Positions 464 through 52,419 of a stretch of 64,000 bases of DNA are shown in pieces. Source of the stretch: Chrysomallon squamiferum. Lineage: Eukaryota; Animalia; Mollusca. Numbering within the stretch: position 1 is the first letter of the stretch; every line of letters starts with the position of its first letter. The DNA is taken from positions 13,764,001 to 13,828,000 of the forward strand of contig CM022679.1 of assembly GCA_012295275.1 (NCBI GenBank), written 5' to 3'. The notes under the pieces are model-generated. The model worked only from the letters and a program-made list of their open reading frames with translations, was not told the origin of the DNA and made no database searches. Both the position numbers and the translations under genes were made by a program.

Positions 464-670
464 CTATTTTGTCTTTTTTCGTTAGTTCTGTTTGTTCTTG
501 ATTTTGCTCAACACCATCTTTGTTTTTGTTTTTACGTCGTATGCTCCACAGTAGGAAAAATATTTGATCTGCAACTGATGATACTATTACTATTGCTAGT
601 ATTACTAATACTACTAGTATTGCTAGTAATACTATTGTATCATAAAGGTCTTCCTGAATCTGGTAGAGAT
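464..670 (-). CDS. Transmembrane and juxtamembrane exon, copy 1
   Basis: ttatttcAG acceptor and GTgagt donor; lies inside ORF 258..698; hydrophobic run followed by RRKNKNK; open through the donor. Confidence 0.85.
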
Positions 671-1439
671 CTGAAATAAAACCAAAGTTTTGTAACAAGC
701 ACCCATAAAAACAACTATGAATTCAGCCATTTTTATAAAGCAAACCAGACTACTGCCATAATACATATACATACACACATTCATACAAACATACATACAT
801 ACAAACATACATACACACACATACATACATACTATACATACATACATACATGAACATACATAGATTCATATATATATATATATATATAAATAATATATAT
901 ATATATATATACACACACAAATACACACAAACATACATATATACATACATACATACATACATGCAAAGACACACACATACATATATCCTCATACACATAT
1001 TCAGACAAATACACATTCACAAACACATACACACACACACACAGATATACACAAACATTAATTATTTTGTGGCTGTAATAAAAAGCTTTACCTTTTTTTG
1101 CCTGATTATCAAGGAAATCTGAAACCAAAACAGAAAACAAATATAATCTGTGAAATAAGCACACAGAAAAGTTGTTACTCTGTATAAAATGAGATCAAAA
1201 ACAAAAGCTGTAACTAACTTTGTAAACATCTATGTGTTTATTTATTTATTTGTTTGTTTGTTTATCTGTTTATTCATTTATTATTTATTTGTCAAATAAT
1301 AAGACACATAATAAAAATGTTACACTACTGTTGTAAAATATAGTATCATCTAGCCTAGAAAGGCCTGCTTTATAGAAACATTTTAAAACATACAAATAGC
1401 AAAAACATTTCTTCTTATTAGAAACCTTTATAATTAATG

Positions 1440-1515
<76 letters not shown>

Positions 1516-1757
1516 TCACAAAGGATCAAAGCACACTGTAATATACATTACAAGGAAACTTTAAACTCGAATGATTATTTATTTTAATAAAAACATTCCT
1601 TTGACAGTGCGTTTTATAAGTCTTAAACAACACAGATATACACACACATACACACAGACACACACAAACATATATATATACATACATACATGCATATCCA
1701 CATAAACATAAATACATACACACACACAGAGACATACATACATACATAAATACATAC

Positions 1758-1822
<65 letters not shown>

Positions 1823-2366
1823 CGTACTTGCATATCAACATAAACATACATAAATATGTAGAGACACAAACACATATAAACACACATACATATATACGTA
1901 CATGTATACATACATGCATATATCCATATAAACATACATAGATATACACACATACATACACACACTCACAATATATACGCACAAATATACAAACACAAAC
2001 ATTTATTATTTCTTAGCTGTAACGATTAATAAGCAGCCTTACCTCTCTGATTAACAAGGAAATCTGAAACAAAAACAAGAAACAGAAAAGTTGTTACTGT
2101 AACTTTGTGAAGATCTGTGAGTTTATCTATTTATTTATTTGACTGTTTGTTTATCTATTTATTTATTTGACTGTTTGTTTATCTATTTATTTATTTGACT
2201 GTTTGTTTATTTATTCAAATAAAAAGACAATAAAAATGCTACAGTTTTGATACAGAAACATTTTAAAATATAGAAATAGCAAAAATAGTTATTCTTATTA
2301 CGAACCTTTAAAGCTAATAAAACACATACACATATTCATTCATATTCAGATACCATTACATAAAGA

Positions 2367-2412
<46 letters not shown>

Positions 2413-2595
2413 TTTACCTACCTTTACAGAAATGAGTACACTGTTTAGGGAAATCCAAACGCTGTGTGAAGCACAAATCACTGATGTCTTTGCAGTAATA
2501 GCACACGCCGTCTTCAGGTACACAATACTCTTCTATCTCATCACATTCATCGTGGCCACATCTAAACGTTGTTCCATGTGTCATATTGATTACTT
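464..2595 (-). CDS. Grindelwald/TNFR-like single-CRD membrane receptor, copy 1 (exons 2422-2595, 2043-2063, 1092-1118, 464-670; continues beyond window start)
   Basis: Four AG/GT-bounded exons of 174, 21, 27 and 207 nt, all phase 1-1, join in one frame: xVINMTHGTTFRCGHDECDEIEEYCVPEDGVCYYCKDISDLCFTQRLDFPKQCTHFCK-DFLVNQR-DFLDNQAKK-DLYQIQEDLYDTIVLLAILVVLVILAIVIVSSVADQIFFLLWSIRRKNKNKDGVEQNQEQTELTKKDKI. It has 8 Cys, a hydrophobic span and a basic stop-transfer patch. Confidence 0.8.
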
Positions 2596-7053: not shown

Positions 7054-7478
7054 TTATGAATACAGCTTTTCAGCGTTTAACCCTTCTTTATCTACGGCTG
7101 GAATCACTGTTTCCAGTTCATTTGGAAGACCTGATCCATTTGGAATATGTTTGTTCTTATTATGTATGGTAATCACTATATCATCATCATCAACAGCAAT
7201 GGTCTTGTCAGCAGTGTTTCTGTTTCTGTTTCTGGAATTCTGTCCAACAGGATGATCTTCATCTGTTTCACTTATTTCCTCACACAACACACTTCCAGAA
7301 CTTCTTCTGTAGAGATGTTTATTAGCATCAACATCCTCTCCTTCTTTTTCATCACTGCTGCAGTGGATATTCCCGTTGAGAACTGCCTGACACAAAGTTG
7401 TTGTATCTGTGTCCCCAGCTCCATCTCCTGCCTCTGTCTGTGATTCAGCACACACGTTCTGCAACACCATCTTGTTCC
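7054..7478 (-). CDS. Terminal exon encoding an acidic low-complexity ~140-aa region; candidate cytoplasmic tail of the receptor family
   Basis: tttttctAG acceptor in phase 1 (compatible with the TM-exon donor); open to TAA at 7054; GC-richer than its flanks; a truncated paralog lies ~1.15 kb downstream of the TM exons of copies 2 and 3. Confidence 0.55.
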
Positions 7479-8479: not shown

Positions 8480-9205
8480 AAGCTTCTTTCAGAAATGCAG
8501 AAAATGTTATTTAGCCGTGTCATCATTTACCCTAGATAACCTCACACGTTCATATTTCATATATAGATTATACAGACAGTCTGCAGGTAACTACTTCTAT
8601 ACAGTAATTATAATACTTTACAGGTGACACTCGATTTCACAGAGCAATAGAGTTAACACAAGTCCGGAAAATACAAAAGTCAGGGAAATCGCGAGTCTAA
8701 ATATTGACCCTCAAATTTACAAAAACATTAAACTTTAGTAGACGTAACACCTACATAATACAGTAAAACAATAATGTAAGAACAATATACTGACAAAAAC
8801 AAATTAAAGAAATTTCATACGGTATATGTTAAGAAAAAGGAACAGTAGAAAAATGTAGAGTACGTTGGCTATAGTTATGGGTGAATTGTAAAATGTACTC
8901 TTACCTTGATGGAAACTGGATTGAGAGAGGACTGCCGCCTTCGTATAGTTAAACTCAGAATAACTTAATAGTACGTAGAGGAAACGTTTCATACCGCAAA
9001 TGACAGATTAACCTTAAATCACGTTTCGTTTATGTGATATAAATAGTTCGGAATTTCCAAGTTAAAAATAAATCCATGTCGCAAATTATAATTTTTATTT
9101 TTTATTCTTTATTTTATTTTTTATTTTTTTTTAAATAGATGTTACTTATTATTATTATTTTATTTTATATTTTATTTATTTATTTATATTACTTTTTTAA
9201 TTATA

Positions 9206-9279
<74 letters not shown>

Positions 9280-10995: not shown

Positions 10996-11035
<40 letters not shown>

Positions 11036-13225: not shown

Positions 13226-13278
<53 letters not shown>

Positions 13279-15059: not shown

Positions 15060-15259
15060 NNNNNNNNNNNNNNNNNNNNNNNNNNNNNNNNNNNNNNNNN
15101 NNNNNNNNNNNNNNNNNNNNNNNNNNNNNNNNNNNNNNNNNNNNNNNNNNNNNNNNNNNNNNNNNNNNNNNNNNNNNNNNNNNNNNNNNNNNNNNNNNNN
15201 NNNNNNNNNNNNNNNNNNNNNNNNNNNNNNNNNNNNNNNNNNNNNNNNNNNNNNNNNNN
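15060..15259. other. Assembly gap (200 N)
   Basis: Run of N. Confidence 1.
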
Positions 15260-16039: not shown

Positions 16040-16086
16040 GTGAAATTTTGCTTATTTTTTCTTACCATAGTTAATAATAATAATAA

Positions 16087-18959: not shown

Positions 18960-19124
18960 TGTCGATCATTTTATTCGGTTGGAATCACTATTTTCATTTA
19001 AAGAATAAATCCATTTGGAATACTGTGTATGTCAATCACTGTATCATTATCTTCAACAGTAATGGTCTCGTCAGCATGGTTTCTTTCACTATTTCTCCAA
19101 TTCTGTCCAACAGGCTCATCTTGA
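18960..19124 (-). pseudogene. 5'-truncated paralog of the candidate cytoplasmic exon (also 41441-41605)
   Basis: QDEPVGQNWRNSERNHADETITVEDNDTVIDIHSIPNG aligns with EDHPVGQNSRNRNRNTADKTIAVDDDDIVITIH...IPNG; the acceptor and 5' half are missing and a microsatellite sits at the junction; upstream intron matches 7600-7890. Confidence 0.75.
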
Positions 19125-20299
19125 TAATAATAATAATAACAACAACAACAACAACAATAATAGCAATAAATACAGTAATAAAACCTAAATGAAATAAACA
19201 TTGTTAAAAATATAAAAATATGCCACTCAGAAATTAGTTTCATTGTACAACTCATACATATCACATTTCATGTACACATTTTACAAGGCTGTAATGGTGT
19301 TCTCATAATTAATCTAAAATACATGTAATAGCACAAGTCAGAAATTGTTATAAACTGAACAAAAATGAATATTTTACAGCAGTGACACAGCAAGATATTA
19401 AAGAAAATATTTTACACACATTAATTTTGTTTGCTCAAATTAACTGTAGTGATCTCAATTTGACCTTAATGTAGGGCTCTACTTTGACAGTATGAACAAA
19501 TGGCAAAAACACTTTCAATGTCTCTCCTAATTTATATATATATATATAAATGACAACCAGTCTTTGCTATGACAGTAAAAATACGCTATCACGAAACTGG
19601 ATCCCCCTTTATTTGCATCAATGGCGATGACATTTCGTTTGATGAGGACTGATTTGTTGTAAGTTGTTAGAAAAAGATTTGGACTCATACCATCAAGGTT
19701 ATTTGTACGGATAAGACCAATATGATTCAATAATTATTATTTCGTGCATTTATGTATGCATCTGTATGTGTGTTTATATACATGTGCGAATGAGTAAGTT
19801 AATGGATGTGTGCATGAGTGAGTCGGTGAAAAAAAATTAAAATATTAATAGGATCAAGCTATCCTAAAGGATGATTGTCACAGTGAAAAAAAGCAGCAGC
19901 ATTCATTAAAGACATTTATATACAAACAGTGAGTAATGGGAATTCACACAACTAGACTCAAATGTTTTTATAACAGTCATACATGCATTTGCAAAGGCAG
20001 GAAATGTCAGCGTTCATATGTTACTCCTGGAGCAACAGCATCATATTATGTACATTCTTTATTATTAGGAAAAACTGGTTAGAAGAAACAAATAAAATAC
20101 TGAAAGAATACACAGTGCATTTAGACTATTGACTGGCACGTAACAACAAATTTATGTTCTTTGACAGAACTGTAAACTAATCTGAATTGAAACATATGCA
20201 GTGTTGTGTGAGTGGATTTGTGTTTACGTGTGTGAGTGTGTTTTTTTCAATTTGGTTAACTGGAAATATACATCTGTCAACTCACCAGCTATTTTGTCT

Positions 20300-21700
20300 T
20301 TAATTCGTTAGTTCTACTTGTTCTTCATTTTGGTCAACACCATCTTTGTTTTTGTTTCTACTTCGAATGATCCCCTGTAGAAAAAATACTAAACCTGCAA
20401 CTGATAATCCTGCTGCTATTGTTAGACTTGCTATGAAAAGTGTATAATAAAGGTCTTTCTGACTCTGGGGGAGATCTGAAATAAAACCAAAGCTTTGTAA
20501 CAAGCACCCATAAAAACAACTATGAATTCAGCCATTTTTATACAGCAAACCAGACTACTGCCATAATACATATACATACACACATACATAAAAACATATA
20601 TACATTTATATACACATACATTCATACACAAGCATACATACGAACACACATACATACAAACATACATATCCATATACTGCCATAATATATGAATACATAC
20701 ATACACACACATATATATATATACTGTGCATACATACCTACACACAAATATATATATGCAAACACACATACATATAAACATACATACACACATACATACA
20801 TACATACATACATACATACATGAACAAACATAGATTCATATATAAATATAAATATATATATACACACACACACACACATAAGAACAGATATACACAAACA
20901 AACATTCATTATTTTGTGGCTGTAATAAATACTTACCTTTTGTTGTCTGATTATCAAGGAAATTTGAAACTAAAACAGAAAACAAATATAATCTGTGAAA
21001 TAAGCACACAGAAAAGTTGTTACTCTACAAAATGAGATCAAAAACAAAAGTTGTAACTAACTTTGTGAAGATCTGTGTGTTTATTTGTTTGTTTGTTTTT
21101 TTGTTTGTTTGTTTGTTTATCTGTTTATTTATTTATTATTTATTTATCAAATAAAAAGACATAATAAAAATGTTACCTTACTGTTATAAAATATAGTATC
21201 ATCTAGCCTAGAAAGACCTGCTTTATAGAAACATTTTACAAATAGCAAAACATTTCTTCTTTTTAGAAACGTTTGTAACTAACTAATAAAACACACACAA
21301 ACACATACTCATTCAGAAAGGACCAAAAGCAAACTGTAATATACATTACAAGGAAACTTTAAACTATATATATACACACACTCACACATACGATAAATAT
21401 ACAAACACAAACATTTATTATTTTATAGCTGTAACAATTAATAATTCTTACCTGTCTGATTATAAAGGAAATCTGAAACAAAAACAATAAACAGAAAAGT
21501 TGTAACTGTAATTTTGTGAAGATCTGTTTATTTCTTCAAATAAAAAGACACAATAAAAATGCTTCAGTATTGATATAGAAACATTTTAAAATATAGAAAT
21601 AGCAAAAATAGGTCTTCTTATTAAGAACCTTTAAAGCTAATAAAACACATACACATATTCATTCATAAATATTCAAACAGACAGACAGACACACACAGAT

Positions 21701-23034: not shown

Positions 23035-23529
23035 TTCATATTTGTATTTTTATTTTTATTATTATTTTATTTATTTTTTCTATTTTTTAAATTTCTTTCG
23101 AAAATATACAAAACGTTATTTTCCATGTCATTATTTACCTTAGATACTCTCACAACGTTCATATTCCGTAGACACATTATACAGACAGTCTGCAGGTAAT
23201 TAATTCTATACAATATTTTTAATAATTTACAGGTGACACTCGATTTCGTAAAGCAATAGAGTTAACAAAAAAGTCTGGGAAATCGCGAATCTAAATATTA
23301 ACCCTCAAATTTACCAAAACATTAAACTTTAGAACACATAACATCTATTTAATACGGTAATAGAATAATCTAAGAAAAACATACAGACAAAAAGAAATTA
23401 AACAAATTTAAGAAAAAGGAACAGAAGAAAAATGTAGAGTACGTTGGGTATAGTTATGGGTGAATTGTAAAATGTATTCTTACCTTGATGGAAATTGGAT
23501 TGAGACAGGACTGCCGCGATCGTGTAGTT

Positions 23530-24612: not shown

Positions 24613-24675
<63 letters not shown>

Positions 24676-24739
24676 TTTATTCATTTATTTTTATTAGTAT
24701 TTTTATTTTTATTAGTATTTTATTTATTTTTTCTATTTT

Positions 24740-27700
24740 TTAAATTTCTTTCGAAAATATACAAAACGTTATTTTGTCATGCCATAATTTACCTTAGATA
24801 CTCTCACAACGTTCATATTTCGTGGACACATTATACAGACAGTATGCAGGTAATTAATTCTATACAATATTTTTAATAATTTACATGTGACACTCTATTT
24901 CATAGAGCAATAGAGTTAATACAAAAGTTTGGGAAATCGCGAATCTAAATATTAACCCTCAAATTTACCAAACCATTAAATTTTAGAACACATAACATCT
25001 ATTTAATACGGTAATATAATAATCTAAGAACGATATACAGACAAAAACGAATTAAACAAATTTCATACGGTATATGTTAAGAAAAAGGAACAGTAGAAAA
25101 ATGTAGGCTAGGTTGGGTGTAGTTATGAGTGAATTGTAAAATGTATTCTTTCTGGATGGAAATTGAATTGAGAGAGGGCTGTCGCGATCGTATAGTTGAA
25201 CACAGAATAAGTTAATAGTACGTAGAGGCAAGGTTTCAAGCGGGAAATGACGTGTGTTCAGATTTATCCAGACAAAATAATCACGTGTCGCGTAAGCGAT
25301 ATAAACAGTTCTATTTTCCGAATTAAAAGTAATCCATATCGTAAATTGAAAGTCTTTATTCTAGCGATATAAACAGTTCTATTTTCCAAATAAAAGTAAA
25401 AAAAAACAATTTCTTTTTTTTAATTTTTAATTTTTTTTTAAATTTCTTTTGAAAATATACAAGACATTATTTTGCAATGTCATTATTTACCTTAGATATT
25501 CTCACAACGTTCATATTTCGTAAACAGATTTTTCAAACACTATGCAGGTAATTAATTCTATACAATATTTTTTCAATAATTTACAGGTGACACTCGATTT
25601 TATAGAGCAATAGAGTTAATACAAAAGTTTGGGAAATCGGTTATCTAAATATTAACCCTCAACTTTACCAAAACATTAAACTTTAGAACACATAATATCT
25701 ACTTAATACGGTAATATAATAATCTAAGAACAATATACAGACAAAAACAAATTAAACAAATTGCATACGGTATATATTTTAAGAAAAAGGAACAGTAGAA
25801 AAATGTAGACTAGGTTGGGTATAGTTACGATTGAATTGTCAAATGTATTCTTACCTTAATGGAAATTGGATTGAGATAGGACTGCCGCAATCGTGTAGTT
25901 GAACACAGAATAAGTTAATAGTGCGTAGTGGTAAGGTTTCAAGCGGAAAATGACGTGTGTACAGATTTATTCAGACAAAATAATCACGTGTCGCGTAAGC
26001 GATATAAATAGTTCTATTTTCCAAATTAAAAGTAAATCCATATCGGAAATTATATGTCTTTTTTTTTTTTTTTTTTTTTTTTATTTTTATTTTTTTATTT
26101 CTTGTTGTTTTGTTTTTGTTTTTTTTTGTATTTTATTACTATTCTTTTTCACTTTCTTTCGAAAATATACAAAACGTTATTTTGCCATGTCATTATTTAC
26201 CTTAGATATTCTCACAACGTTCATAATTCGTAGACACATTATACAGACAGTATGTAGGTAATTAATTCTATACAATATTTTTTTAATAATTTACATGTGA
26301 CACTCTATTTCACAGAGCAATAGAGTTAATACAAAAGTTTGGGAAATCGCGAATCTAAATATTAACCCTCAAATTTACCAAACCATTAAATTTTAGAACA
26401 CATAACATCTATTTAATACGGTAATATAATAATCTAAGAACGATATACAGACAAAAACGAATTAAACAAATTTCATACGGTATATGTTAAGAAAAAGGAA
26501 CAGTAGAAAAATGTAGGCTAGGTTGGGTATAGTCATGAGTGAATTGTAAAATGTATTCTTTCTGGATGGAAATTGGATTGACAGAGGGCTGTCGCGATCG
26601 TATAGTTGAACACAGAATAAGTTAATAGTACGTAGAGGCAAGGTTTCAAGCGGGAAATGACGTGTGTTCAGATTTATCCAGACAAAATAATCACGTGTCG
26701 CGTAAGCGATATAAACAGTTCTATTTTCCGAATTAAAAGTAATCCATATCGTAAATTGAAAGTCTTTATTCTAGCGATATAAACAGTTCTATTTTCCAAA
26801 TAAAAGTAAAAAAAAACAATTTCTTTTTTTTAATTTTTAATTTTTTTTTAAATTTCTTTTGAAAATATACAAGACATTATTTTGCAATGTCATTATTTAC
26901 CTTAGATATTCTCACAACGTTCATATTTCGTAAACAGATTTTTCAAACACTATGCAGGTAATTAATTCTATACAATATTTTTTCAATAATTTACAGGTGA
27001 CACTCGATTTTATAGAGCAATAGAGTTAATACAAAAGTTTGGGAAATCGGTTATCTAAATATTAACCCTCAACTTTACCAAAACATTAAACTTTAGAACA
27101 TATAATATCTACTTAATACGGTAATATAATAATCTAAGAACAATATACAGACAAAAACAAATTAAACAAATTGCATACGGTATATTTTAAGAAAAAGGAA
27201 CAGTAGAAAAATGTAGACTAGGTTGGGTATAGTTACGATTGAATTGTCAAATGTATTCTTACCTTAATGGAAATTGGATTGAGATAGGACTGCCGCAATC
27301 GTGTAGTTGAACACAGAATAAGTTAATAGTGCGTAGTGGCAAGGTTTCAAGCGGAAAATGACGTGTGTACAGATTTATTCAGACAAAATAATCACGTGTC
27401 GCGTAAGCGATATAAATAGTTCTATTTTCCAAATTAAAAGTAAATCCATATCGGAAATTATATGTCTTTATTTTATTTTAATTTTATTTTAATTTTTATT
27501 TATTTATTTCTTGTTGTTTTGTTTTTTTTTTTTGTATTTTATTACTATTCTTTTTCACTTTCTTTCGAAAATATACAAAACGTTATTTTGCCATGTCATT
27601 ATTTACCTTAGATATTCTCACAACGTTCATAATTCGTAGACACATTATACAGACAGTATGCAGGTAATTAATTCTATACAATATTTTTAATAATTTACAT

Positions 27701-30500
27701 GTGACACTCTATTTCACAGAGCAATAGAGTTAATACAAAAGTTTGGGAAATCGCGAATCTAAATATTAACCCTCAAATTTACCAAACCATTAAATTTTAG
27801 AACACATAACATCTATTTAATACGGTAATATAATAATCTAAGAACGATATACAGACAAAAACGAATTAAACAAATTTCATACGGTATATGTTAAGAAAAA
27901 GGAACAGTAGAAAAATGTAGGCTAGGTTGGGTATAGTCATGAGTGAATTGTAAAATGTATTCTTTCTGGATGGAAATTGGATTGACAGAGGGCTGTCGCG
28001 ATCGTATAGTTGAACACAGAATAAGTTAATAGTACGTAGAGGCAAGGTTTCAAGCGGGAAATGACGTGTGTTCAGATTTATCCAGACAAAATAATCACGT
28101 GTCGCGTAAGCGATATAAACAGTTCTATTTTCCGAATTAAAAGTAATCCATATCGTAAATTGAAAGTCTTTATTCTAGCGATATAAACAGTTCTATTTTC
28201 CAAATAAAAGTAAAAAAAAACAATTTCTTTTTTTTAATTTTTAATTTTTTTTTAAATTTCTTTTGAAAATATACAAGACATTATTTTGCAATGTCATTAT
28301 TTACCTTAGATATTCTCACAACGTTCATATTTCGTAAACAGATTTTTCAAACACTATGCAGGTAATTAATTCTATACAATATTTTTTCAATAATTTACAG
28401 GTGACACTCGATTTTATAGAGCAATAGAGTTAATACAAAAGTTTGGGAAATCGGTTATCTAAATATTAACCCTCAACTTTACCAAAACATTAAACTTTAG
28501 AACACATAATATCTACTTAATACGGTAATATAATAATCTAAGAACAATATACAGACAAAAACAAATTAAACAAATTGCATACGGTATATTTTAAGAAAAA
28601 GGAACAGTAGAAAAATGTAGACTAGGTTGGGTATAGTTACGATTGAATTGTCAAATGTATTCTTACCTTAATGGAAATTGGATTGAGATAGGACTGCCGC
28701 AATCGTGTAGTTGAACACAGAATAAGTTAATAGTGCGTAGTGGCAAGGTTTCAAGCGGAAAATGACGTGTGTACAGATTTATTCAGACAAAATAATCACG
28801 TGTCGCGTAAGCGATATAAATAGTTCTATTTTCCAAATTAAAAGTAAATCCATATCGGAAATTATATGTCTTTATTTTATTTTAATTTTATTTTAATTTT
28901 TATTTATTTATTTCTTGTTGTTTTGTTTTTGTTTTTTTTTGTATTTTATTACTATTCTTTTTCACTTTCTTTCGAAAATATACAAAACGTTATTTTGCCA
29001 TGTCATTATTTACCTTAGATATTCTCACAACGTTCATAATTCGTAGACACATTATACAGACAGTATGCAGGTAATTAATTCTATACAATATTTTTAATAA
29101 TTTACATGTGACACTCTATTTCACAGAGCAATAGAGTTAATACAAAAGTTTGGGAAATCGCGAATCTAAATATTAACCCTCAAATTTACCAAACCAAAAC
29201 CATTTTTTTTTAGAACACATAACATTTATTTAATACGGTAATATAATAATCTAAGAACGATATACAGACAAAAACAAATTAAACAAATTTCATACGGTAT
29301 ATGTTAAGAAAAAGGAACAGTAGAAAAATGTAGGCTAGGTTGGGTATATAGTCATGAGTGAATTGTAAAATGTATTCTTTCTGGATGGAAATTGGATTGA
29401 CAGAGGGCTGTCGCGATCGTATAGTTGAACACAGAATAAGTTAATAGTACGTAGAGGCAAGGTTTCAAGCGGGAAATGACGTGTGTTCTGTTTTTTACCA
29501 AAACATTAAACTTTAGAACACATAATATCTACTTAATACGGTAATATAATAATCTAAGAACAATATACAGACAAAAACAAATTAAACAAATTGCATACGG
29601 TATATTTTAAGAAAAAGGAACAGTAGAAAAATGTAGACTAGGTTGGGTATAGTTACGATTGAATTGTCAAATGTATTCTTACCTTAATGGAAATTGGATT
29701 GAGATAGGACTGCCGCAATCGTGTAGTTGAACACAGAATAAGTTAATAGTGCGTAGTGGCAAGGTTTCAAGCGGAAAAAATGACGTGTGTACAGATTTAT
29801 TCAGACAAAATAATCACGTGTCGCGTAAGCGATATAAATAGTTCTATTTTCCAAATTAAAAGTAAATCCATATCGGAAATTATATGTCTTTATTTTATTT
29901 TAATTTTATTTTAATTTTTATTTATTTATTTTTTTGTTTTGTTTTTGTTTTTTTTTGTATTTTATTTATTATTTTTTTCAATTTCTTTCGAAAATATACA
30001 AAACGTTATTTTTGCCATGTCATTATTTACCTTAGATATTCTCACAACGTTCATAATTCGTAGACACATTATACAGACAGTATGCAGGTAATTAATTCTA
30101 TACAATATTTTTAATAATTTACATGTGACACTCTATTTCACAGAGCAATAGAGTTAATACAAAAGTTTGGGAAATCGCGAATCTAAATATTAACCCTCAA
30201 ATTTACCAAACCATTAAATTTTAGAACACATAACATCTATTTAATACGGTAATATAATAATCTAAGAACGATATACAGACAAAAACGAATTTAAACAAAT
30301 TTCATACGGTATATGTTAAGAAAAAGGAACACGGAACGTTTTGTAAAAATGTAGGCTAGGTTGGGTGTAGTTATTTGAATTGTAAAATGTAATTATTTTT
30401 TGGATGGAAATTGAATTGAGAGAGGGAATATTTGCGATCGTATAGTTGAACACAGAATAAGTTAATAGTAATAGAGGCAAGGTTTCAAGGGGAAATTACG
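24740..30500. repeat. Higher-order tandem array, ~1407-bp dimer of two diverged ~700-bp monomers
   Basis: The gtgacactctatttc marker occurs near 24887, 26296, 27701, 29108 and 30125, alternating with a gtgacactcgatttt variant. Confidence 0.9.
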
Positions 30501-31815
30501 GTGTGTTCAGATTTATCCAGACAAAAAAAGAAAATAAATAGTTCGTGTAAGCGATATAAACATTTTATACAGATAAATTAAAAGTAATCGATATTTATAT
30601 TTTGAAAATAAAAATTCTAGCGATATAATTTTTATATTATTTTCAAAAAAAAAGTAAAAAAAAAATATTATTTTTTTTTTTTTTATTTTTTTTTATTTTT
30701 TTAATTTCTTATGAAAATATTATAAGACATTATTTCAAGATAATCACAATGTACATAAAATAAAGACGTTATGAACCATTTCAAAAACATTTTATTTTAT
30801 TCATTTTTTATTTTTTATTTTTTTTTTCAAACACTATGCAGGTAATTAATTCTATACTGATTTTAAAATAATTGGCATAGAGATATTATTTTGTAAGATA
30901 GTGCAATCAGAGTTAACAAAAATTTTGGGAAAAAATAATGTAAATAAATAAAAATTTGCAATAAAACATTAAAATAAGAATACATAACATCTAAACAAAT
31001 TTAAAAAGTTAAAAAAGAACAATAAATAATAAAACAAATTAAACAAATTGCAAAGAAATATTTTAAGAAAAAAGGAAAGAAGAAAATTGTAGTCTAGGTT
31101 ACAGAGTTAACATTGATTACACATATGTACGTTTTCATATGATTTAAAATAAAATTAATAAAAAAATAAAAACTAAAATAATAATAAAATAGTTGAACAC
31201 AGAATAAAATTAATCAAAAAAAAATAGTGGCATGTTTTAAAATGAAAAATAATAATTTGTCGTACAGATTTATTTCAGAACATAAATTTTCATTTTTCCT
31301 TTAAGATATATTTTAAAACAATTTAGAGGACGAAAATAAAAAATATTGCAATAATAGCAATAATAATAACAAACATCTAAAAAAAAAAAAAAAAAATTAC
31401 AATAGTAAAAATGAATAAACAAAAAAAATACATAAATAAATAAAAGGAAATAAATAAAATAAAATAAATATAAAATAAAATAAGAAAATGAAATAAAATT
31501 AATAAATTTAAAAAAAAATAAAATTGATAAATTTAAATAATAATGAAATAAATATAAAATAAAATAAAGTTTAAAAAAATATTTTTTTCTAAATACAATA
31601 TAATTAAATTAAATTAATTAAATAAATAAATTAAATAAATATAAAACGATTTGAAATAAAATAAAATAAAATAAAATGAATGAATGAATGAATGATTGAA
31701 TGAATAATGAAATAAAATAAAATAAAATAAATATAAAATAAAATTAAATAAATTTAAAAAAAATTAAATTGAATTAAAAGTTGGATTTTTCTTACTTTTA
31801 CAAATTCCATTACCA

Positions 31816-32240
31816 TTTATGAATACAGCCTTTCAGCGTTTAACCCTTCTTTATCTACGGCTGGAATCACTGTTTCCAGTTCATTTGGAAGACCTGATCC
31901 ATTTGGAATATGTTTGTTCTTATTATGTATGGTAATCACTATATATCATCATCAACAGCAATGGTCTTGTCAGCAGTGTTTCTGTTTCTGTTTCTGGAAT
32001 TCTGTCCAACAGGATGATCTTCATCTGTTTCACTTATTTCCTGACACGACACATTTCCAGAACTTCTTCTGTAGAGATGTCTATTAGCATCAACATCCTC
32101 TCCTTCTTTTTCATCACTGCTGCAGTGGATGTTCCCGTTGGGAACTGCCTGACACAGAGTTGTTGTATCTGTGTCCCCAGCTCCATCTCCTGCCTCTCTC
32201 TGTGATTCAGCACACTCGTTTTGCAACACCATCTTGTTCC
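31816..32240 (-). pseudogene. Second copy of the candidate cytoplasmic exon with a 1-nt frameshift
   Basis: Acceptor intact; ctatatatcatc vs ctatatcatcatc gives a stop at 31939; the remainder is still colinear with 7054-7180. Confidence 0.6.
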
Positions 32241-41277: not shown

Positions 41278-42836
41278 AACCTAGTTATCTGTAGCTAGTG
41301 AAGAAGAAAGAAGAAAATATTTTTTGATATGGTTTGTTACACTATTATAACAGTGAAATGTTTGTATCCTCTGTTATTTGTTTTCTAATTCTGCATAAAT
41401 TAGTTACGTTCATTACAAATTATTAATCTCATACTAAATATGTCGATCATTTTATTCGGTTGGAATCACTATTTTCATTTAAAGAATAAATCCATTTGGA
41501 ATACTGTGTATGTCAATCACTGTATCATTATCTTCAACAGTAATGGTCTCGTCAGCATGGTTTCTTTCACTATTTCTCCAATTCTGTCCAACAGGCTCAT
41601 CTTGATAATAATAATAATAACAACAACAACAACAACAATAATAGCAATAAATACAGTAATAAAACCTAAATGAAATAAACATTGTTAAAAATATAAAAAT
41701 ATGCCACTCAGAAATTAGTTTCATTGTACAACTCATACATATCACATTTCATGTACACATTTTACAAGGCTGTAATGGTGTTCTCATAATTAATCTAAAA
41801 TACATGTAATAGCACAAGTCAGAAATTGTTATAAACTGAACAAAAATGAATATTTTACAGCAGTGACACAGCAAGATATTAAAGAAAATATTTTACACAC
41901 ATTAATTTTGTTTGCTCAAATTAACTGTAGTGATCTCAATTTGACCTTAATGTAGGGCTCTACTTTGACAGTATGAACAAATGGCAAAAACACTTTCAAT
42001 GTCTCTCCTAATTTATATATATATATATAAATGACAACCAATCTTTGCTATGACAGTAAAAATACGCTATCACGAAACTGGATCCCCCTTTATTTGCATC
42101 AATGGCGATGACATTTCGTTTGATGAGGACTGATTTGTTGTAAGTTGTTAGAAAAAGATTTGGACTCATACCATCAAGGTTATTTGTACGGATAAGACCA
42201 ATATGATTCAATAATTATTATTTCGTGCATTTATGTATGCATCTGTATGTGTGTTTATATACATGTGCGAATGAGTAAGTTAATGGATGTGTGCATGAGT
42301 GAGTCGGTGAAAAAAATTAAAATATTAATAGGATCAAGCTATCCTAAAGGATGATTGTCACAGTGAAAAAAAGCAGCAGCATTCATTAAAGACATTTATA
42401 TACAAACAGTGAGTAATGGGAATTCACACAAATAGACTCAAATGTTTTTATAACAGTCATACATGCATTTGCAAAGGCAGGAAATGTCAGCGTTCATATG
42501 TTACTCCTGGAGCAACAGCATCATATTATGTACATTCTTTATTATTAGGAAAAACTGGTTAGAAGAAACAAATAAAATACTGAAAGAATACACAGTGCAT
42601 TTAGACTATTGACTGGCACGTAACAACAAATTTATGTTCTTTGACAGAACTGTAAACTAATCTGAATTGAAACATATGCAGTGTTGTGTGAGTGGATTTG
42701 TGTTTACGTGTGTGAGTGTGTTTTTTTCAATTTGGTTAACTGGAAATATACATCTGTCAACTCACCAGCTATTTTGTCTTTAATTCGTTAGTTCTACTTG
42801 TTCTTCATTTTGGTCAACACCATCTTTGTTTTTGTT

Positions 42837-44327
42837 TTAACGTCGAAAGCTCCACAGTAGGAAAAATACTAAACCTGCAACTAATAATCCTGCTGCTATT
42901 GCTATGAAAAGTGTATAATAAAGGTCTTTCTGACTCTGGGGGAGATCTGAAATAAAACCAAAGCTTTGTAACAAGCACCCATAAAAACAACTATGAATTC
43001 AGCCATTTTTATACAGCAAACCAGACTACTGCCATAATACATATACATACACACATACATAAAAACATATATACATTTATATACACATACATTCATACAC
43101 AAGCATACATACGAACACACATACATACAAACATACATATCCATATACTGCCATAATATATGAATACATACATACACACACATATATATATATACTGTGC
43201 ATACATACCTACACACAAATATATATATGCAAACACACATACATATAAACATACATACACACATACATACATACATACATACATACATGAACAAACATAG
43301 ATTCATATATAAATATAAATATATATATACACACACACACACACATAAGAACAGATATACACAAACAAACATTCATTATTTTGTGGCTGTAATAAATACT
43401 TACCTTTTGTTGTCTGATTATCAAGGAAATTTGAAACTAAAACAGAAAACAAATATAATCTGTGAAATAAGCACACAGAAAAGTTGTTACTCTACAAAAT
43501 GAGATCAAAAACAAAAGTTGTAACTAACTTTGTGAAGATCTGTGTGTTTATTTGTTTGTTTGTTTTTTTGTTTGTTTATTTATTTATTATTTATTTATCA
43601 AATAACAAGACATAATAAAAATGTTACCTTACTGTTATAAAATATAGTATCATCTAGCCTAGAAAGACCTGCTTTATAGAAACATTTTAAAACATACAAA
43701 TAGAAAAACATTTCTTCTTATTAGAAACCTTTGTAACTAACTAATAAAACACACACAAACACATACTCATTCAGAAAGGACCAAAAGCAAACTGTAATAT
43801 ACATTACAAGGAAACTTTAAACTCGATGATTTTTTTTTTTTTTTAATAAAAACATTTCTTTGCCAGTGCGTTTTATAATTCTTACATGCATACAAACATA
43901 CGTATATATTTATATATGTACATGCAAATCCACATAAACATACATAAATACATTTAAATACATATATACGTACATGCATACATCCACATAAACATACATA
44001 TATTTACGTACATATAAACACACACTCACACATACGATAAATATACAAACTCAAACATTTATTATTTTATAGCTGTAACAATTAATAATTCTTACCTGTC
44101 TGATTATGAAGGAAATCTGAAACAAAAACAATAAACAGAAAAGTTGTAACTGTAATTTTGTGAAGATCTGTTTATTTATTCAAATAAAAAGACACAATAA
44201 AAATGCTTCAGTATTGATATAGAAACATTTTAAAATATAGAAATAGCAAAAATAGGTCTTCTTATTAAGAACCTTTAAAGCTAATAAAACACATACACAT
44301 ATTCATTCATAAATATTCAGACAGACA

Positions 44328-44363: not shown

Positions 44364-44554
44364 TACACACATTTACCTACCCATACATAATGGATTACAC
44401 TGTTTAGGGAAAACCAAACGTGTTGTAGCGCACAAATCACTGATGCCTATGCAGTAATAGCACCTCTCATCTTCACGTACACAATACTGTTCTCTCTCAT
44501 CACATACATCGTGGCCACATCTAAACGTTGTTCCATGTGTCATATTGATTACTT
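42837..44554 (-). CDS. Grindelwald/TNFR-like single-CRD receptor, copy 3 (exons 44381-44554, 44096-44116, 43404-43436, 42766-42946), tailless
   Basis: xVINMTHGTTFRCGHDVCDEREQYCVREDERCYYCIGISDLCATTRLVFPKQCNPLCM-DFLHNQT-VSNFLDNQTTK-DLPQSQKDLYYTLFIAIAAGLLVAGLVFFLLWSFRR*. Confidence 0.78.
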
Positions 44555-44855: not shown

Positions 44856-46268
44856 GTACCGGATCCATAGGATCAACTTGTTTTAATGTATGTCACCGAA
44901 CTGGGGAATGACAGAAACTTCTGGAACCGTTTCGAAACAAATGGTGCCAGTCCTACGAATCACGTTACGGATGGCATTGAAAATTGAAAATGATAGGCAG
45001 CAGTCTTCCCAATATTTTTGAATTCAAAGATATGATTAAGAGAGAACAGGCCTTTGTTGAAGCTAAAGTTTTATAGTTAAGACTTTGACATATGCCTATA
45101 GAAAATGCTCCTCTTGACAGGACAAAAATCTGCAACAGAATATGCTGATTCCGTCTCCCATTTTGTTGGACTGTAAAATGTTAGTTCTTTGTTGATCTTT
45201 TGGGAAATTAACTTTACTAAAGTATATGTCATTTTTATGAGAAACAGTAGTACACTATTAAAGATCAAAATAAGCGATTAATTAATTTATTTAATATATT
45301 CAGTACAATTTATATTTGTAAAACATTGTTTTTATTTATTTATTTTTTTTTTTTTTTTTATTTATTTTTTATTTTTTAAAGAATCAGTTAAATTGAAGAG
45401 TATTCCGAGGAATATTTAAATGCATCCTCTACAGGATAAATTGGCAAGGTTTCAAGTCGGAAATGACGTTTTGTTCAGATTTACCTGTCGCGTAGGAGAT
45501 ATCACGAATCACGTGATATATAATAACAGGTGCGAGCACAGTGAGGTGACCCCGTATGTCATTATGCGAAATAAAAGATTATGAAGAAACAGTAGTACAC
45601 TATTAAAGATCAAAATAAGCGACCAATTTATTTATTTAATATATTCCGTACAATTTATATTTATAAAACATATTTTTTATTTACATATTGTATTAGTGTT
45701 TATTTAATTTATTAATTTATGTATTATTATTTATTTATTTATTTATTTATTTATTCCTTCATATTTGTATTTTTATTTTTATTATTATTTTATTTATTTT
45801 TTCTATTTTTTAAATTTCTTTCAAAAATATACAAAACTTTATTTTGCCATGTCATTATTTACCTTAGATACTCTCACAACGTTCATATTCCGTAGACACA
45901 CTATACAGACAGTCTGCAGGTAATTAATTCTATACAATATTTTTAATAATTTACAGGTGACACTCGATTTCGTAAAGCAATAGAGTTAACAAAAAAGTCT
46001 GGGAAATCGCGAATCTAAATATTAACCCTCAAATTTACCAAAACATTAAACTTTAGAACACATAACATCTATTTAATACGGTAATATAATAATCTAAGAA
46101 AAATATACAGACAAAAAGAAATTAAACAAATTTAATACGGTATTTGTTAAGAAAAAGGAACAGAAGAAAAATGTAGAGTACGTTGGGTATAGTTATGGGT
46201 GAATTGTAAAATGTATTCTTACCTTGATGGAAATTGGATTGAGACAGGACTGCCGCGATCGTGTAGTT

Positions 46269-47040
46269 CAGTGATTCTCAACCTTTTTTTGCCAACGGCA
46301 CACCTTGGAACACAGGAAAAAATAGCGGGACACCTGGTTAAATATACATGAAAAATATTTGAATTTTGCTAAATAAAAACATGGCAAGTCATAGACAGCA
46401 GACAACCGTAGACACAAATTAGTCATAGACACATAGAATGACTCAAACTAAATAAAGAAAAACACAGCTATGAACTCACTTCATTGCAGTAGTTCTAATT
46501 TCATGAATCAAATAGCTGGCTTCTTTAGTGACAAATTTGTGCCTGACTTTTATTCATAATTTCGTCAATGTTTCGTCAAATATGAGACAGACACACCCTC
46601 ATTTCTTCTTCCATTGTACGTAATCTCCAGTGCTTCATGTTTTTGATGTTGTTTAATGTTGAGAAGCCTAATTCACATATGTAAGAAGTTGAAAATTGTA
46701 ATAAAATTGCTACTAAAGCTCTTTTATATAATATGGGATACTCCTCTTGAATTGAAATCCAAAATGAATCAATGGGCAGATTCAAATATTTTAATTTTAA
46801 CCCTTGGTCACTAGAAAGGTGGCCAATTCTTATTCTTCCTATAACTCATGTTCAATGTTGGAAGAATAATTTATGAAAGGATCTCTAATCCAATCATTCT
46901 TTTCTGACTTTAATGACGGAAAGTAATTGTTGATGCTTTCGGCCAGGGCTGTCAGATGAGTATACACAATAGAGATCATTTCTCTAATACAGGTAGAACA
47001 CAATAAAAGGAACATATCAAGATTGCCAGTGATTGCTTTT
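46269..47040 (-). mobile_element. hAT (Charlie/Buster-like) transposon 3' end, duplicate
   Basis: Same terminus and coding relic as 23530-24300 (ORF 46576..46785 and part of 46839..47186). Confidence 0.85.
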
Positions 47041-47327: not shown

Positions 47328-47402
<75 letters not shown>

Positions 47403-47469
47403 TTCATTTATTTTTATTAGTATTTTTATTTTTATTATTATTTTATTTATTTTTTCTATTTTTTAAATT

Positions 47470-50400
47470 TCTTTCGAAAATATACAAAACGTTATTTTGT
47501 CATGCCATAATTTACCTTAGATACTCTCACAGCGTTCATATTTCGTAGACACATTATACAGACAGTCTGCAGGTAATTAATTCTATACAATATTTTTAAT
47601 AATTTACAGGTGACACTCGATTTCATAGAGCGATAGAGTTAATACTAAAGTCTGGGAAATCGCGAATCTAAATATTAACCCTCAAATTTACCAAAACATT
47701 AAACTTAAGAACACACATTTCATCTATTTAATACGGTAATATAATAATGTGAGAACAATATACAGACAAAAACAAATTAAACAAATTTCATACGGTATAT
47801 GTTAAGAAAAAGGAACAGTAGAAAAATGTAGACTACGTTGGGTATAGTTATGAGTGAATTGTGAAATGTATTCTTACCTTGATGGAAATTGTATTAAGAG
47901 GGGGCTGCAGCGATCTTATAGTTGAACACAGAATAAGTTAATAGTACGTAGAGGTAAGGTTTCAAGTTGAAAATGACGTGTGTTCAGCTTTATTCAGACA
48001 AAATAACCACGTTTCGCGTAAGCGATATAAATAGTTCTATTTCCCAAATTAAAAGTAAATCCATACCGGAAATTTATAGTTTTTATTTTAGTTTATTTTT
48101 ATTTTTATATATTTATTTATTCGTTGTTTTTTTTGTTTTTTTGTTGTTTTTTTTGGTGTCTTTTTGTATTTTATTATTATTATTTTTAATTTCTTTCGAA
48201 AATATAGAAAACGTTATTTTCCCATTCCGTCATTTACCTTAGATATTCTCACAACGTTCAAATTTCGTAGACACATTATACAGACAGTATGCAGGTAATT
48301 AATTCTATACAATATTTTTAATAATTTACAGGTGACACTCGATTTCATAGAGCGATAGAGTTAATACTAAAGTCTGGGAAATCGCGAATCTAAATATTAA
48401 CCCTCAAATTTACCAAAACATTAAACTTAAGAACACACATTTCATCTATTTAATACGGTAATATAATAATGTGAGAACAATATACAGACAAAAACAAATT
48501 AAACAAATTTCATACGGTATATGTTAAGAAAAAGGAACAGTAGAAAAATGTAGACTACGTTGGGTATAGTTATGAGTGAATTGTGAAATGTATTCTTACC
48601 TTGATGGAAATTGTATTAAGAGGGGGCTGCAGCGATCTTATAGTTGAACACAGAATAAGTTAATAGTACGTAGAGGTAAGGTTTCAAGTTGAAAATGACG
48701 TGTGTTCAGCTTTATTCAGACAAAATAACCACGTTTCGCGTAAGCGATATAAATAGTTCTATTTCCCAAATTAAAAGTAAATCCATACCGGAAATTTATA
48801 GTTTTTATTTTAGTTTATTTTTATTTTTATATATTTATTTATTCGTTGTTTTTTTTGTTTTTTTGTTGTTTTTTTTGGTGTTTTTTTGTATTTTATTATT
48901 ATTATTTTTAATTTCTTTCGAAAATATAGAAAACGTTATTTTCCCATTCCGTCATTTACCTTAGATATTCTCACAACGTTCAAATTTCGTAGACACATTA
49001 TACAGACAGTATGCAGGTAATTAATTCTATACAATATTTTTAATAATTTACAGGTGACACTCGATTTCATAGAGCGATAGAGTTAATACTAAAGTCTGGG
49101 AAATCGCGAATCTAAATATTAACCCTCAAATTTACCAAAACATTAAACTTAAGAACACACATTTCATCTATTTAATACGGTAATATAATAATGTGAGAAC
49201 AATATACAGACAAAAACAAATTAAACAAATTTCATACGGTATATGTTAAGAAAAAGGAACAGTAGAAAAATGTAGACTACGTTGGGTATAGTTATGAGTG
49301 AATTGTGAAATGTATTCTTACCTTGATGGAAATTGTATTAAGAGGGGGCTGCAGCGATCTTATAGTTGAACACAGAATAAGTTAATAGTACGTAGAGGTA
49401 AGGTTTCAAGTTGAAAATGACGTGTGTTCAGCTTTATTCAGACAAAATAACCACGTTTCGCGTAAGCGATATAAATAGTTCTATTTCCCAAATTAAAAGT
49501 AAATCCATACCGGAAATTTATAGTTTTTATTTTAGTTTATTTTTATTTTTATATATTTATTTATTCGTTGTTTTTTTTGTTTTTTTGTTTTTTTTTGGTG
49601 TTTTTTTGTATTTTATTATTATTATTTTTAATTTCTTTCGAAAATATAGAAAACGTTATTTTCCCATTCCGTCATTTACCTTAGATATTCTCACAACGTT
49701 CAAATTTCGTAGACACATTATACAGACAGTATGCAGGTAATTAATTCTATACAATATTTTTAATAATTTACAGGTGACACTCGATTTCATAGAGCGATAG
49801 AGTTAATACTAAAGTCTGGGAAATCGCGAATCTAAATATTAACCCTCAAATTTACCAAAACATTAAACTTAAGAACACACATTTCATCTATTTAATACGG
49901 TAATATAATAATGTGAGAACAATATACAGACAAAAACAAATTAAACAAATTTCATACGGTATATGTTAAGAAAAAGGAACAGTAGAAAAATGTAGACTAC
50001 GTTGGGTATAGTTATGAGTGAATTGTGAAATGTATTCTTACCTTGATGGAAATTGTATTAAGAGGGGGCTGCAGCGATCTTATAGTTGAACACAGAATAA
50101 GTTAATAGTACGTAGAGGTAAGGTTTCAAGTTGAAAATGACGTGTGTTCAGCTTTATTCAGACAAAATAACCACGTTTCGCGTAAGCGATATAAATAGTT
50201 CTATTTCCCAAATTAAAAGTAAATCCATACCGGAAATTTATAGTTTTTATTTTAGTTTATTTTTATTTTTATATATTTATTTATTCGTTGTTTTTTTTGT
50301 TTTTTTGTTGTTTTTTTTGGTGTCTTTTTGTATTTTATTATTATTATTTTTAATTTCTTTCGAAAATATAGAAAACGTTATTTTCCCATTCCGTCATTTA

Positions 50401-51390
50401 CCTTAGATATTCTCACAACGTTCAAATTTCGTAGACACATTATACAGACAGTATGCAGGTAATTAATTCTATACAATATTTTTAATAATTTACAGGTGAC
50501 ACTCGATTTCATAGAGCGATAGAGTTAATACAAAAGTCTGGGAAATCGTGAATCTAAATATTAACCCTCAAATTTACCAAAACATTAAACTTAAGAACAC
50601 ACATTTCATCTATTTAATACGGTAATATAATAATGTGAGAACAATATACAGACAAAAACAAATTAAACAAATTTCATACGGTATATGTTAAGAAAAAGGA
50701 ACAGTAGAAAAATGTAGACTACGTTGGGTATAGTTATGAGTGAATTGTGAAATGTATTCTTACCTTGATGGAAATTGTATTAAGAGGGGGCTGCAGCGAT
50801 CTTATAGTTGAACACAGAATAAGTTAATAGTACGTAGAGGTAAGGTTTCAAGTTGAAAATGACGTGTGTTCAGCTTTATTCAGACAAAATAACCACGTTT
50901 CGCGTAAGCGATATAAATAGTTCTATTTCCCAAATTAAAAGTAAATCCATACCGGAAATTTATAGTTTTTATTTTAGTTTATTTTTATTTTTATATATTT
51001 ATTTATTCGTTGTTTTTTTTGTTTTTTTGTTGTTTTTTTTGGTGTCTTTTTGTATTTTATTATTATTATTTTTAATTTCTTTCGAAAATATAGAAAACGT
51101 TATTTTCCCATTCCGTCATTTACCTTAGATATTCTCACAACGTTCAAATTTCGTAGACACATTATACAGACAGTATGCAGGTAATTAATTCTATACAATA
51201 TTTTTAATAATTTACAGGTGACACTCGATTTCATAGAGCGATAGAGTTAATACAAAAGTCTGGGAAATCGTGAATCTAAATATTAACCCTCAAATTTACC
51301 AAAACATTAAACTTAAGAACACACATTGCATCTATTTAATACGGTAATATAATAATGTGAGAACAATATACAGATGAAAACAAATTAAAG
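47470..51390. repeat. Homogeneous tandem array, 720-722 bp monomer x ~5.4
   Basis: ORF-track starts 47967, 48689, 49411, 50131 and 50853; units almost identical. Confidence 0.97.
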
Positions 51391-51641
51391 GTTTCAAGCG
51401 GGATGTTTTTTAACACACACACACACGAACAAACAAAAAAAGCAATTTGACTTATTTGAATGTGTACTTAATTTCTTTTCTGTAATTATTTCTTTTTGTG
51501 TTCACTTTCGACTCAAAGAATCAGTTAAACTGAAAAATATTCCCAGAAATATTTGAATACACCCTCAACAGGATAACTTAAGAGTACATACGTAGAGCCA
51601 AGCTTTCGACTCAAAGAATCAGTTAAACTGAAAAGTATTTC

Positions 51642-51841
51642 NNNNNNNNNNNNNNNNNNNNNNNNNNNNNNNNNNNNNNNNNNNNNNNNNNNNNNNNNNN
51701 NNNNNNNNNNNNNNNNNNNNNNNNNNNNNNNNNNNNNNNNNNNNNNNNNNNNNNNNNNNNNNNNNNNNNNNNNNNNNNNNNNNNNNNNNNNNNNNNNNNN
51801 NNNNNNNNNNNNNNNNNNNNNNNNNNNNNNNNNNNNNNNNN
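51642..51841. other. Assembly gap (200 N)
   Basis: Run of N. Confidence 1.
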
Positions 51842-51874
51842 TTCTTAGCTGTAACGATTAATAAGCAGCCTTAC

Positions 51875-52189
51875 CTCTCTGATTAACAAGGAAATCTGAA
51901 ACAAAAACAAGAAACAGAAAAGTTGTTACTGTAACTTTGTGAAGATCTGTGAGTTTATCTATTTATTTATTTGACTGTTTGTTTATCTATTTATTTATTT
52001 GACTGTTTGTTTATCTATTTATTTATTTGACTGTTTGTTTATTTATTCAAATAAAAAGACAATAAAAATGCTACAGTTTTGATACAGAAACATTTTAAAA
52101 TATAGAAATAGCAAAAATAGTTATTCTTATTACGAACCTTTAAAGCTAATAAAACACATACACATATTCATTCATATTCAGATACCATT

Positions 52190-52236
<47 letters not shown>

Positions 52237-52419
52237 TTTACCTACCTTTACAGAAACGAGTACACTGTTTAGGGAAATCCAAACGTGTTGTAGGGCACAA
52301 ATCACTGATGTCTTTGCAGTAATAGCACACGCCGTCTTCAGGTACACAATACTCTTCTATCTCATCACATACATAGTGGCCACATCTAAACGTTGTTCCA
52401 TGTGTCATATTGATTACTT
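51875..52419 (-). CDS. Grindelwald/TNFR-like single-CRD receptor, copy 4, partial (exons 52246-52419, 51875-51895; remainder lost at the gap)
   Basis: xVINMTHGTTFRCGHYVCDEIEEYCVPEDGVCYYCKDISDLCPTTRLDFPKQCTRFCK-DFLVNQR; flanks 51842-54740 are colinear with 2010-4920. Confidence 0.78.

Follow-up and report, generated by a model that had tools for sequence, protein, structure and literature searches.

The 64,000-nt stretch of Chrysomallon squamiferum DNA analysed here (the window; contig CM022679.1 of assembly GCA_012295275.1, positions 13,764,001-13,828,000; GC content 28%; two gaps of 200 N each, at 15060-15259 and 51642-51841) contains four tandem copies of a spliced and transcribed gene family, each with one cysteine-rich domain (CRD) whose predicted fold is that of the small tumour necrosis factor receptors (TNFRs). 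The copies form a real, expressed birth-and-death array of receptors with a predicted BCMA/TACI/Grindelwald fold, and their function is by prediction small-TNFR-like. On balance we consider it probable that the array encodes variable receptors, together with tail-less decoys, for the snail's own TNF-type cytokines.

The first-pass annotation of the window had described four minus-strand CRD exons with AG/GT splice sites and 8 Cys, followed by micro-exons and, in three copies, a transmembrane (TM) exon, all in phase 1, and each of these elements was found where it had been placed (Table 1). Every CRD exon is preceded by ttcag and followed by gtaggt, is in phase 1 on both sides, and has one open frame that keeps the 8 Cys and carries no stop codon. 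The Cys spacing is 4(5)-6-6-2-6-10-3, and the CRD exons of copies 2-4 are 74-91% identical to that of copy 1. This pattern occurs 4 times in the six frames of the window versus 0 times in 30 shuffles, and the 64 kb hold no fifth CRD exon. Micro-exon 1 is 21 nt long in all four copies and micro-exon 2 is 27-33 nt in three; with their flanks (window 1075-1160 versus 2025-2100) the two are duplicates of each other at 78-88% identity, and the stalk therefore appears to have been lengthened by micro-exon duplication. In copies 2 and 3 the AG acceptor of micro-exon 2 lies 6 nt upstream of the copy 1 site, with the frame kept. The TM exons of copies 1, 2 and 3 each encode a single hydrophobic segment. 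Copy 1 alone is open from the CRD through the TM-exon donor (142 residues), and its next exon would fall outside the window, past its start; the other two TM-bearing copies, 2 and 3, are truncated by a stop inside the TM exon, ~27 and ~5 residues beyond the helix, respectively. Only a 3' remnant of the terminal exon is left in both (the 5' two-thirds are missing in copy 2), and the TM exon is perhaps their last exon, because AATAAA sites lie 222 nt past the TM donors. Copies 2 and 3 are located within a large tandem duplication, and copy 4 is interrupted by the second N gap after micro-exon 1.

Transcription of the family, and splicing from a leader exon to the CRD exon and on to the micro-exons, are observed directly in RNA. 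Contigs from one RNA run (X9) and three DNA runs (X1, X5 and X8) were mapped to the CRD interval; depth in X9 is restricted to the CRD exon, while the DNA runs also cover the flanks. The RNA contigs come from one library at depths of 2-11, and their joins were read by hand from reverse complements. The join from CRD to micro-exon 1 is present in four of eight RNA contigs: three contigs run on into the first 18 nt of the copy-1/4 micro-exon 1, and one carries the whole copy-3 micro-exon 1 followed by the 6 nt immediately 5' of micro-exon 2. The shifted, frame-keeping acceptor is therefore used, which overturns a reading of micro-exon 2 as a dead exon in these copies (AA for AG in copies 2 and 3). 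A 5' exon precedes the CRD in two of the eight contigs. One of these exons has an exact 30-nt match to the window at 23486-23515 and 46225-46254; the other, in which a stop read by hand lies in frame 9 codons ahead of the CRD, comes from a divergent paralogue and has no convincing match anywhere in the window. Furthermore, one RNA contig of 39 nt is an exact match to copy 1. Outside the window, a divergent paralogue (RNA record 31; DNA records 6 and 19) shows ~20 differences over the CRD, an inter-helix loop like that of a Gigantopelta aegis gene and, as read by hand in a 30-nt loose end, an apparent loss of Cys6.

The repeats of 700-900 nt that fill the window are copies of this CRD-spliced 5' leader exon, 28 of them on the minus strand and none on the plus strand, with a GT donor in 22 and an in-frame ATG plus open frame in 2. 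Decayed hAT remnants (Dimer_Tnp_hAT, E 3e-4) lie at 23550-24320 and 46270-47040, inside the leaders nearest to copies 2 and 3, and a leader cut in this way is still spliced to the CRD. Ahead of the donor, both RNA-matched leader units contain an in-frame stop and lack a Met; in the unit nearest to copy 2, the stop lies 18 codons upstream. The leader frame reads like a weak signal peptide, with an 11-residue hydropathy of 1.2-1.8 versus 2.2-3.2 in eight Haliotis N-termini. All four copies retain a Met at codon 4 of the CRD exon; it is also present in both G. aegis genes, whose models start with it and have no hydrophobic N-terminus. Because the Met position is kept, in-frame stops precede the CRD and the G. 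aegis N-termini are not hydrophobic, the window proteins are likely to lack a signal peptide and to be type III membrane proteins, the arrangement described for BCMA, TACI and BAFF-R (PMC5360319). The identification of the 28 upstream repeats as leader copies and the likely absence of a signal peptide extend the earlier annotation.

The family has relatives in other gastropods. When the four copies were used on their own, a word-based homologue search gave no match. A profile search of 1.84 billion representatives, in which shared words were required so that the range of the family may be wider, gave five matches: two G. aegis genes, one Haliotis rubra protein, one unnamed ENA protein and a repetitive frame (P0003), which was dropped as a homologue. 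Two iterations gave 11 and then 13 proteins, all from Gigantopelta or Haliotis, with CRD identities to the window copies of 48-53% and 33-40%, respectively. These relatives are CRD plus single-TM proteins from clustered loci, with a spacing of 4-6-6-2-6-(8 or 10)-3. Of the two G. aegis genes (LOC121379917 and LOC121378842), one is long-tailed (327 aa) and one short-tailed (114-124 aa), and isoforms differ by a skipped 9-aa segment after the CRD. In H. rufescens five loci (LOC124114659 and LOC124114663-666) lie on one contig, and they have counterparts in H. rubra, H. asinina and H. cracherodii. The Haliotis relatives have hydrophobic N-termini and a long heptad-like stalk, whereas the stalk is short and made of micro-exons in the window and G. 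aegis genes. One H. rubra model (P0009, 568 aa) contains two full CRD-stalk-TM units and probably fuses two tandem genes. An orphan terminal exon at 7054-7478 has a C-terminus that aligns with that of the long-tailed G. aegis protein (P0002; 10/19, E 0.006), and this exon is likely to encode the cytoplasmic tail of the family, as judged from this alignment; it gave no alignment with a Haliotis member (P0021). Our literature searches found no description of the gastropod family, although the supplements of a 2024 preprint (115 grnd homologues) may include members. Together with the several variants present in each DNA run, these relatives bear out the earlier view of an expanded, variable, multi-locus family.

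Drosophila Grindelwald is a receptor for the TNF Eiger and has one 8-Cys CRD. The window CRD is predicted to fold as a beta-hairpin followed by a helix-loop-helix, the fold of the small single-CRD TNFRs, and to be nearest to BCMA and TACI. The AlphaFold model built from 24 sequences (predicted local distance difference test, pLDDT, 78.8) has strands at 22-25 and 30-33 and then two helices. Foldseek fills ranks 1-11 with BCMA, TACI and Grindelwald (best E 0.63), and in a wide structure search only 5 of 48,161 chains reach Z >=2, the top four being BCMA, BCMA, TACI and Grindelwald and the fifth complement C6. Realignment gives Z 4.0 (root-mean-square deviation, rmsd, 2.2 Å over 37 residues) and 3.9 (1.7 Å over 36) for BCMA, Z 3.4 (3.4 Å over 47 residues, model 8-56 on Grindelwald 31-81) for Grindelwald and Z 2.9 for TACI. 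In the Atlas, two homologues point to Fn14, TACI, BCMA and BAFF-R by features and to Grindelwald first by structure. A first model from 9 sequences (pLDDT 56) had Grindelwald at Foldseek rank 1 (E 2.2) and only complement C6 in the wide search. Each of these scores is weak; the fold is assigned because several of them agree. The structures of Fn14 and BAFF-R are not among the fold matches, which excludes neither. The possibility of a fold unrelated to TNFR CRDs, which the first-pass annotation had named as fatal to its reading, is thus not borne out by the predicted fold; its Grindelwald/TNFR-like assignment stands as regards a small single-CRD TNFR-like fold and shifts from Grindelwald towards BCMA/TACI.

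The array fails several marks of each named TNFR family. It resembles BCMA, TACI, BAFF-R and Fn14 in having a single small CRD with hairpin and helix-loop-helix, one TM segment and no death domain found (no Pfam family in the terminal exon and no Death match in the 7 homologues scanned), and BCMA is its best structural match (Z 4.0, rmsd 1.7-2.2 Å over 35-37 residues). Unlike these receptors, the window CRD has 8 Cys with an extra N-terminal pair and 6 residues between Cys5 and Cys6, and the family has no DxL tip, no TRAF site and a tandem multicopy arrangement. It shares with Grindelwald the 8 Cys (kept in 4/4 copies and in 23 of 24 aligned sequences), the order of an X2 and then a C2 module, the lack of DxL, an N-terminal module of equal length (model 11-56 on Grindelwald 34-81) and an invariant aromatic before Cys3, Tyr23 presumably being equivalent to Phe46. 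The earlier claim of near-Grindelwald spacing holds for the N-terminal module and fails at Cys5-Cys6, where there are 6 residues here and 3 in Grindelwald: the C2 module is C-x6-C-x10-C-x3-C in the window versus C57-x3-C61-x11-C73-x3-C77 in Grindelwald (PMC8024323). Grindelwald also superposes worse (rmsd 3.4-3.7 Å), and the CxxCxxxC signature of the 2024 preprint is missing from the window. Grindelwald-like single-CRD receptors are described across invertebrates; expansions are among them (12 in a single annelid), and two bivalves have homologues (bioRxiv 10.1101/2024.07.27.603686).

Several observations weigh against a TNFR-like receptor array. No structure match reaches E 0.001 or Z 5, and the Atlas scores lie below the bar of 0.9 and are leads only. 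At the sequence level, Pfam gives no match for the four window CRDs; TACI-CRD2 is matched by one of 12 aligned CRDs at E 0.024, far below the cut-off, and in a test of the TACI-CRD2/BCMA models homologue P0001 scores 13.5 bits versus a cut-off of 22.9. One CRD and two profiles found only chance matches, and no TNFR, in the PDB. The hairpin carries V-P/R-E-D in the four copies instead of the Asp-x-Leu or Ser-x-Asp-Leu reported at the hairpin tip of vertebrate receptors (PMC8024323), and CxxCxxxC is missing from the four copies and the 10 homologues measured, all with 6 residues between Cys5 and Cys6. The TRAF consensus (P/S/A/T)-x-(Q/E)-E, which BAFF-R and fish TACI are also described as lacking (PMC5360319), is found neither in the terminal exon of 140 aa nor in the TM-exon tail of copy 1, and the P0002 tail has one match at chance level. 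Of the joins predicted by the earlier annotation, that from the CRD to the micro-exons is seen; a join to a TM exon, or on to a terminal exon, is unseen in RNA contigs that are anchored at the CRD exon only. As to topology, 2 of the 28 leader units do have an in-frame ATG and Haliotis members have hydrophobic N-termini, so type I forms of the family may exist. Finally, the excess of exon over intron divergence is not significant between copies 1 and 4 (P=0.12), and the ratio of nonsynonymous to synonymous differences per site (pN/pS) is 0.91-1.48 over six pairs, none significant; positive selection is not supported, because pN/pS is about 1.

In the mechanism that we propose for the receptor array, a leader exon from the upstream repeat array is spliced to the CRD exon and then to the micro-exons, as seen in RNA, and translation would start at the Met inside the CRD exon to give a type III membrane protein without signal peptide. 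By analogy, one TNF trimer would be bound by three of the predicted CRDs, with contacts at the hairpin tip and inter-helix loop. Non-death TNFRs use TRAF-interacting motifs for signalling (PMC3697994), and long-tailed copies of the copy 1 type may signal, without a death domain, to a TRAF-type adaptor through a loose I/V-x-P motif found near the C-terminus of long-tailed members with a pattern written after the alignment. With their stops in the TM exon, copies 2 and 3 would bind ligand without signalling. Among TNFRs, the decoy receptors DcR1 and DcR2 stand beside DR4 and DR5 as tandem paralogues with and without a signalling tail; these belong to a multi-CRD death-domain clade, unlike the window family, for which truncation is what suggests a decoy role. 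Duplication, loss and gene conversion would then reshuffle the surface residues of the CRD while the cysteines are held.

Divergence between copies 2 and 3 is concentrated in exons. In this pair, 16/174 CRD sites, 9/181 TM-exon sites and 62/3387 intron sites differ (P=6e-7 for the CRD), i.e., 9.2% in the CRD exon versus 1.8% in introns, with peaks on both large exons. The hairpin tip (26-30) and inter-helix loop (42-47) are both affected, including by charge and proline changes, as are other parts of the CRD; residues 26-30 and 42-47 would correspond, by analogy, to the regions with which Grindelwald binds Eiger (PMC8024323). At codons 15, 16 and 22 the four copies fall into three mutually incompatible groupings, a sign of gene conversion or recurrent change. 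The same data could be read as a birth-and-death graveyard, in which one gene works (copy 1 or 4), copies 2 and 3 are transcribed pseudogenes and divergence reflects relaxed constraint and gene conversion from other paralogues rather than a repertoire function. The stops in the TM exons, the shortened terminal exons, the two orphan terminal exons, the hAT remnant in the leader and the lack of an in-frame ATG with open frame in 26 of 28 leader units would all fit, as would a pN/pS near 1 with synonymous sites raised too (pS 0.08 versus 0.018 in introns). However, none of the 30 variable columns among 171 falls in a Cys codon (P=0.007), no CRD contains a stop, the frame-keeping shifted acceptor is used in RNA and a short-tailed gene is annotated in G. 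aegis, and we regard the graveyard as unlikely.

We consider it similarly unlikely that the window represents fewer than four loci, with copies 1/4 or 2/3 being haplotypes placed in tandem by the assembly and the exon peaks reflecting allelic hyper-polymorphism, in a family that would still be multi-locus. Copy 4 begins right at the N gap; its upstream sequence matches copy 1 at 96% identity and one of its introns at 100%, and for copies 2 and 3 the identity is 99.3-100% along ~2 kb 3' of micro-exon 2. Yet the stretch that holds copies 2 and 3 is free of gaps and has different repeat arrays between the two. Furthermore, among the 8 longest contigs of 54 (X8), 90 (X5) and 29 (X1), at least 7, 5 and 4, respectively, are distinct over one CRD interval, which exceeds one diploid locus, although the samples may be pooled. 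The 3-nt insertion of copy 2 is present in X1 and X5. Summed depth is many times that of single contigs; it gives no copy number and was left unused. A single locus assembled four times, which the first-pass annotation had named as an outcome that would undo it, is unlikely because independent DNA samples hold 4-7 variants each.

More doubtful than either is a wider scenario in which a gastropod TNFR clade bridging Grindelwald and BCMA/TACI lost its signal peptide independently and became, through gene conversion and balancing selection, a hypervariable array of signalling and decoy receptors for symbiont control or self/non-self recognition. Least probable is that the fold was co-opted so that the CRDs bind microbial, symbiont or allo-ligands directly instead of host TNFs: the many variants per sample, the changes in charge and proline at the hairpin tip and in the inter-helix loop, the lack of DxL and the closest relative G. 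aegis being a chemosymbiotic vent snail (PMC7895826) would suit it, but the family is also clustered in abalones, which are not known to be chemosymbiotic, Grindelwald binds Eiger without DxL as well (PMC8024323), and up to 27 TNFs in one mollusc species (bioRxiv 10.1101/2024.07.27.603686) would need receptors.

Other features of the window are collected in Table 1. In addition, a short element with a strong-looking acceptor ahead of it occurs in eight minus-strand copies (5015, 8181, 12262, 22448, 32959, 37044, 45129 and 59795), between the leader arrays and the CRD exons, and may be an optional exon; the copies at 5015 and 59795 have a GT donor-like site 36 nt downstream. Elements containing CCGCCAT were seen by eye on the minus strand at ~4570, 7990, 54415 and 57400, upstream of copies 1 and 4 as well as the orphan terminal exon, and resemble YY1-type promoter motifs. 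A 2.3-kb repeat (12799-15059 versus 15628-17965, 89% identity) flanks the first N gap and may reflect a scaffolding overlap of haplotypes. At window position 2613, the copy-1 base is missing from all three DNA runs, which suggests a private allele or an assembly error.

Table 1. Exons, leader units and related features of the four-copy array (window positions)
Feature	Position	Strand	Basis
Copy 1 CRD exon, 8 Cys, internal Met at codon 4	2422..2595	-	sequence; RNA depth confined to exon
Copy 1 micro-exon 1, 21 nt, stalk	2043..2063	-	first 18 nt joined to CRD in consensus of 3 RNA contigs
Copy 1 micro-exon 2, 27 nt, stalk	1092..1118	-	sequence
Copy 1 TM exon, 207 nt, open to donor	464..670	-	19-aa hydropathy 3.66
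Copy 2 CRD exon, one extra codon	21761..21937	-	3-nt insertion also in DNA runs X1, X5
Copy 2 micro-exon 1	21452..21472	-	sequence
Copy 2 micro-exon 2, 33 nt, acceptor 6 nt upstream	20937..20969	-	shifted acceptor in 1 RNA contig, copy-3 type
Copy 2 TM exon, stop ~27 residues after helix, short tail	20286..20475	-	sequence
Copy 2 terminal (cytoplasmic) exon remnant, 5' two-thirds missing	18976..19125	-	sequence
Copy 3 CRD exon	44381..44554	-	sequence
Copy 3 micro-exon 1	44096..44116	-	all 21 nt joined to CRD in 1 RNA contig
Copy 3 micro-exon 2, 33 nt, shifted acceptor	43404..43436	-	sequence and RNA
Copy 3 TM exon, stop ~5 residues after helix, tail-less	42766..42946	-	sequence
Copy 3 terminal exon remnant	41457..41606	-	sequence
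Copy 4 CRD exon	52246..52419	-	sequence
Copy 4 micro-exon 1, then N gap 51642-51841	51875..51895	-	sequence
Orphan phase-1 terminal exon, 140 aa open, without own CRD or TM exon	7054..7478	-	sequence
Second orphan terminal exon, frameshift after 99 aa, without CRD or TM exon	31817..32240	-	sequence
Tandem leader-unit array, ~700-nt period	24630..30594	-	repeat comparison
Similar leader arrays	8468-11346, 33246-36135, 47351-51389, 54852-64000	-	repeat comparison
Leader exon, unit nearest to copy 2, 5' part replaced by hAT remnant	23484..23529	-	exact 30-nt RNA match
Leader exon, unit nearest to copy 3	46223..46268	-	identical match to same RNA end
Leader unit with in-frame ATG and GT donor	8905..8992	-	sequence
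Second leader unit with in-frame ATG and GT donor	33683-33770	-	sequence

Accounts of the origin of the human TNF receptors with one or two CRDs differ: one preprint leaves four of them untraced and calls Grindelwald arthropod-specific (bioRxiv 10.1101/2021.12.26.474206), while the 2024 preprint describes Grindelwald-like receptors in invertebrates at large. The family described here has the 8 Cys of Grindelwald yet superposes better on BCMA. Counts of mollusc TNFRs are likely to be too low, because the family is missed by Pfam and five gastropod species have its members under the label 'uncharacterized'. With long-tailed and tail-less copies side by side and divergence focused on exons, the array may serve as an invertebrate example in which the diversification of cytokine receptors can be tested.

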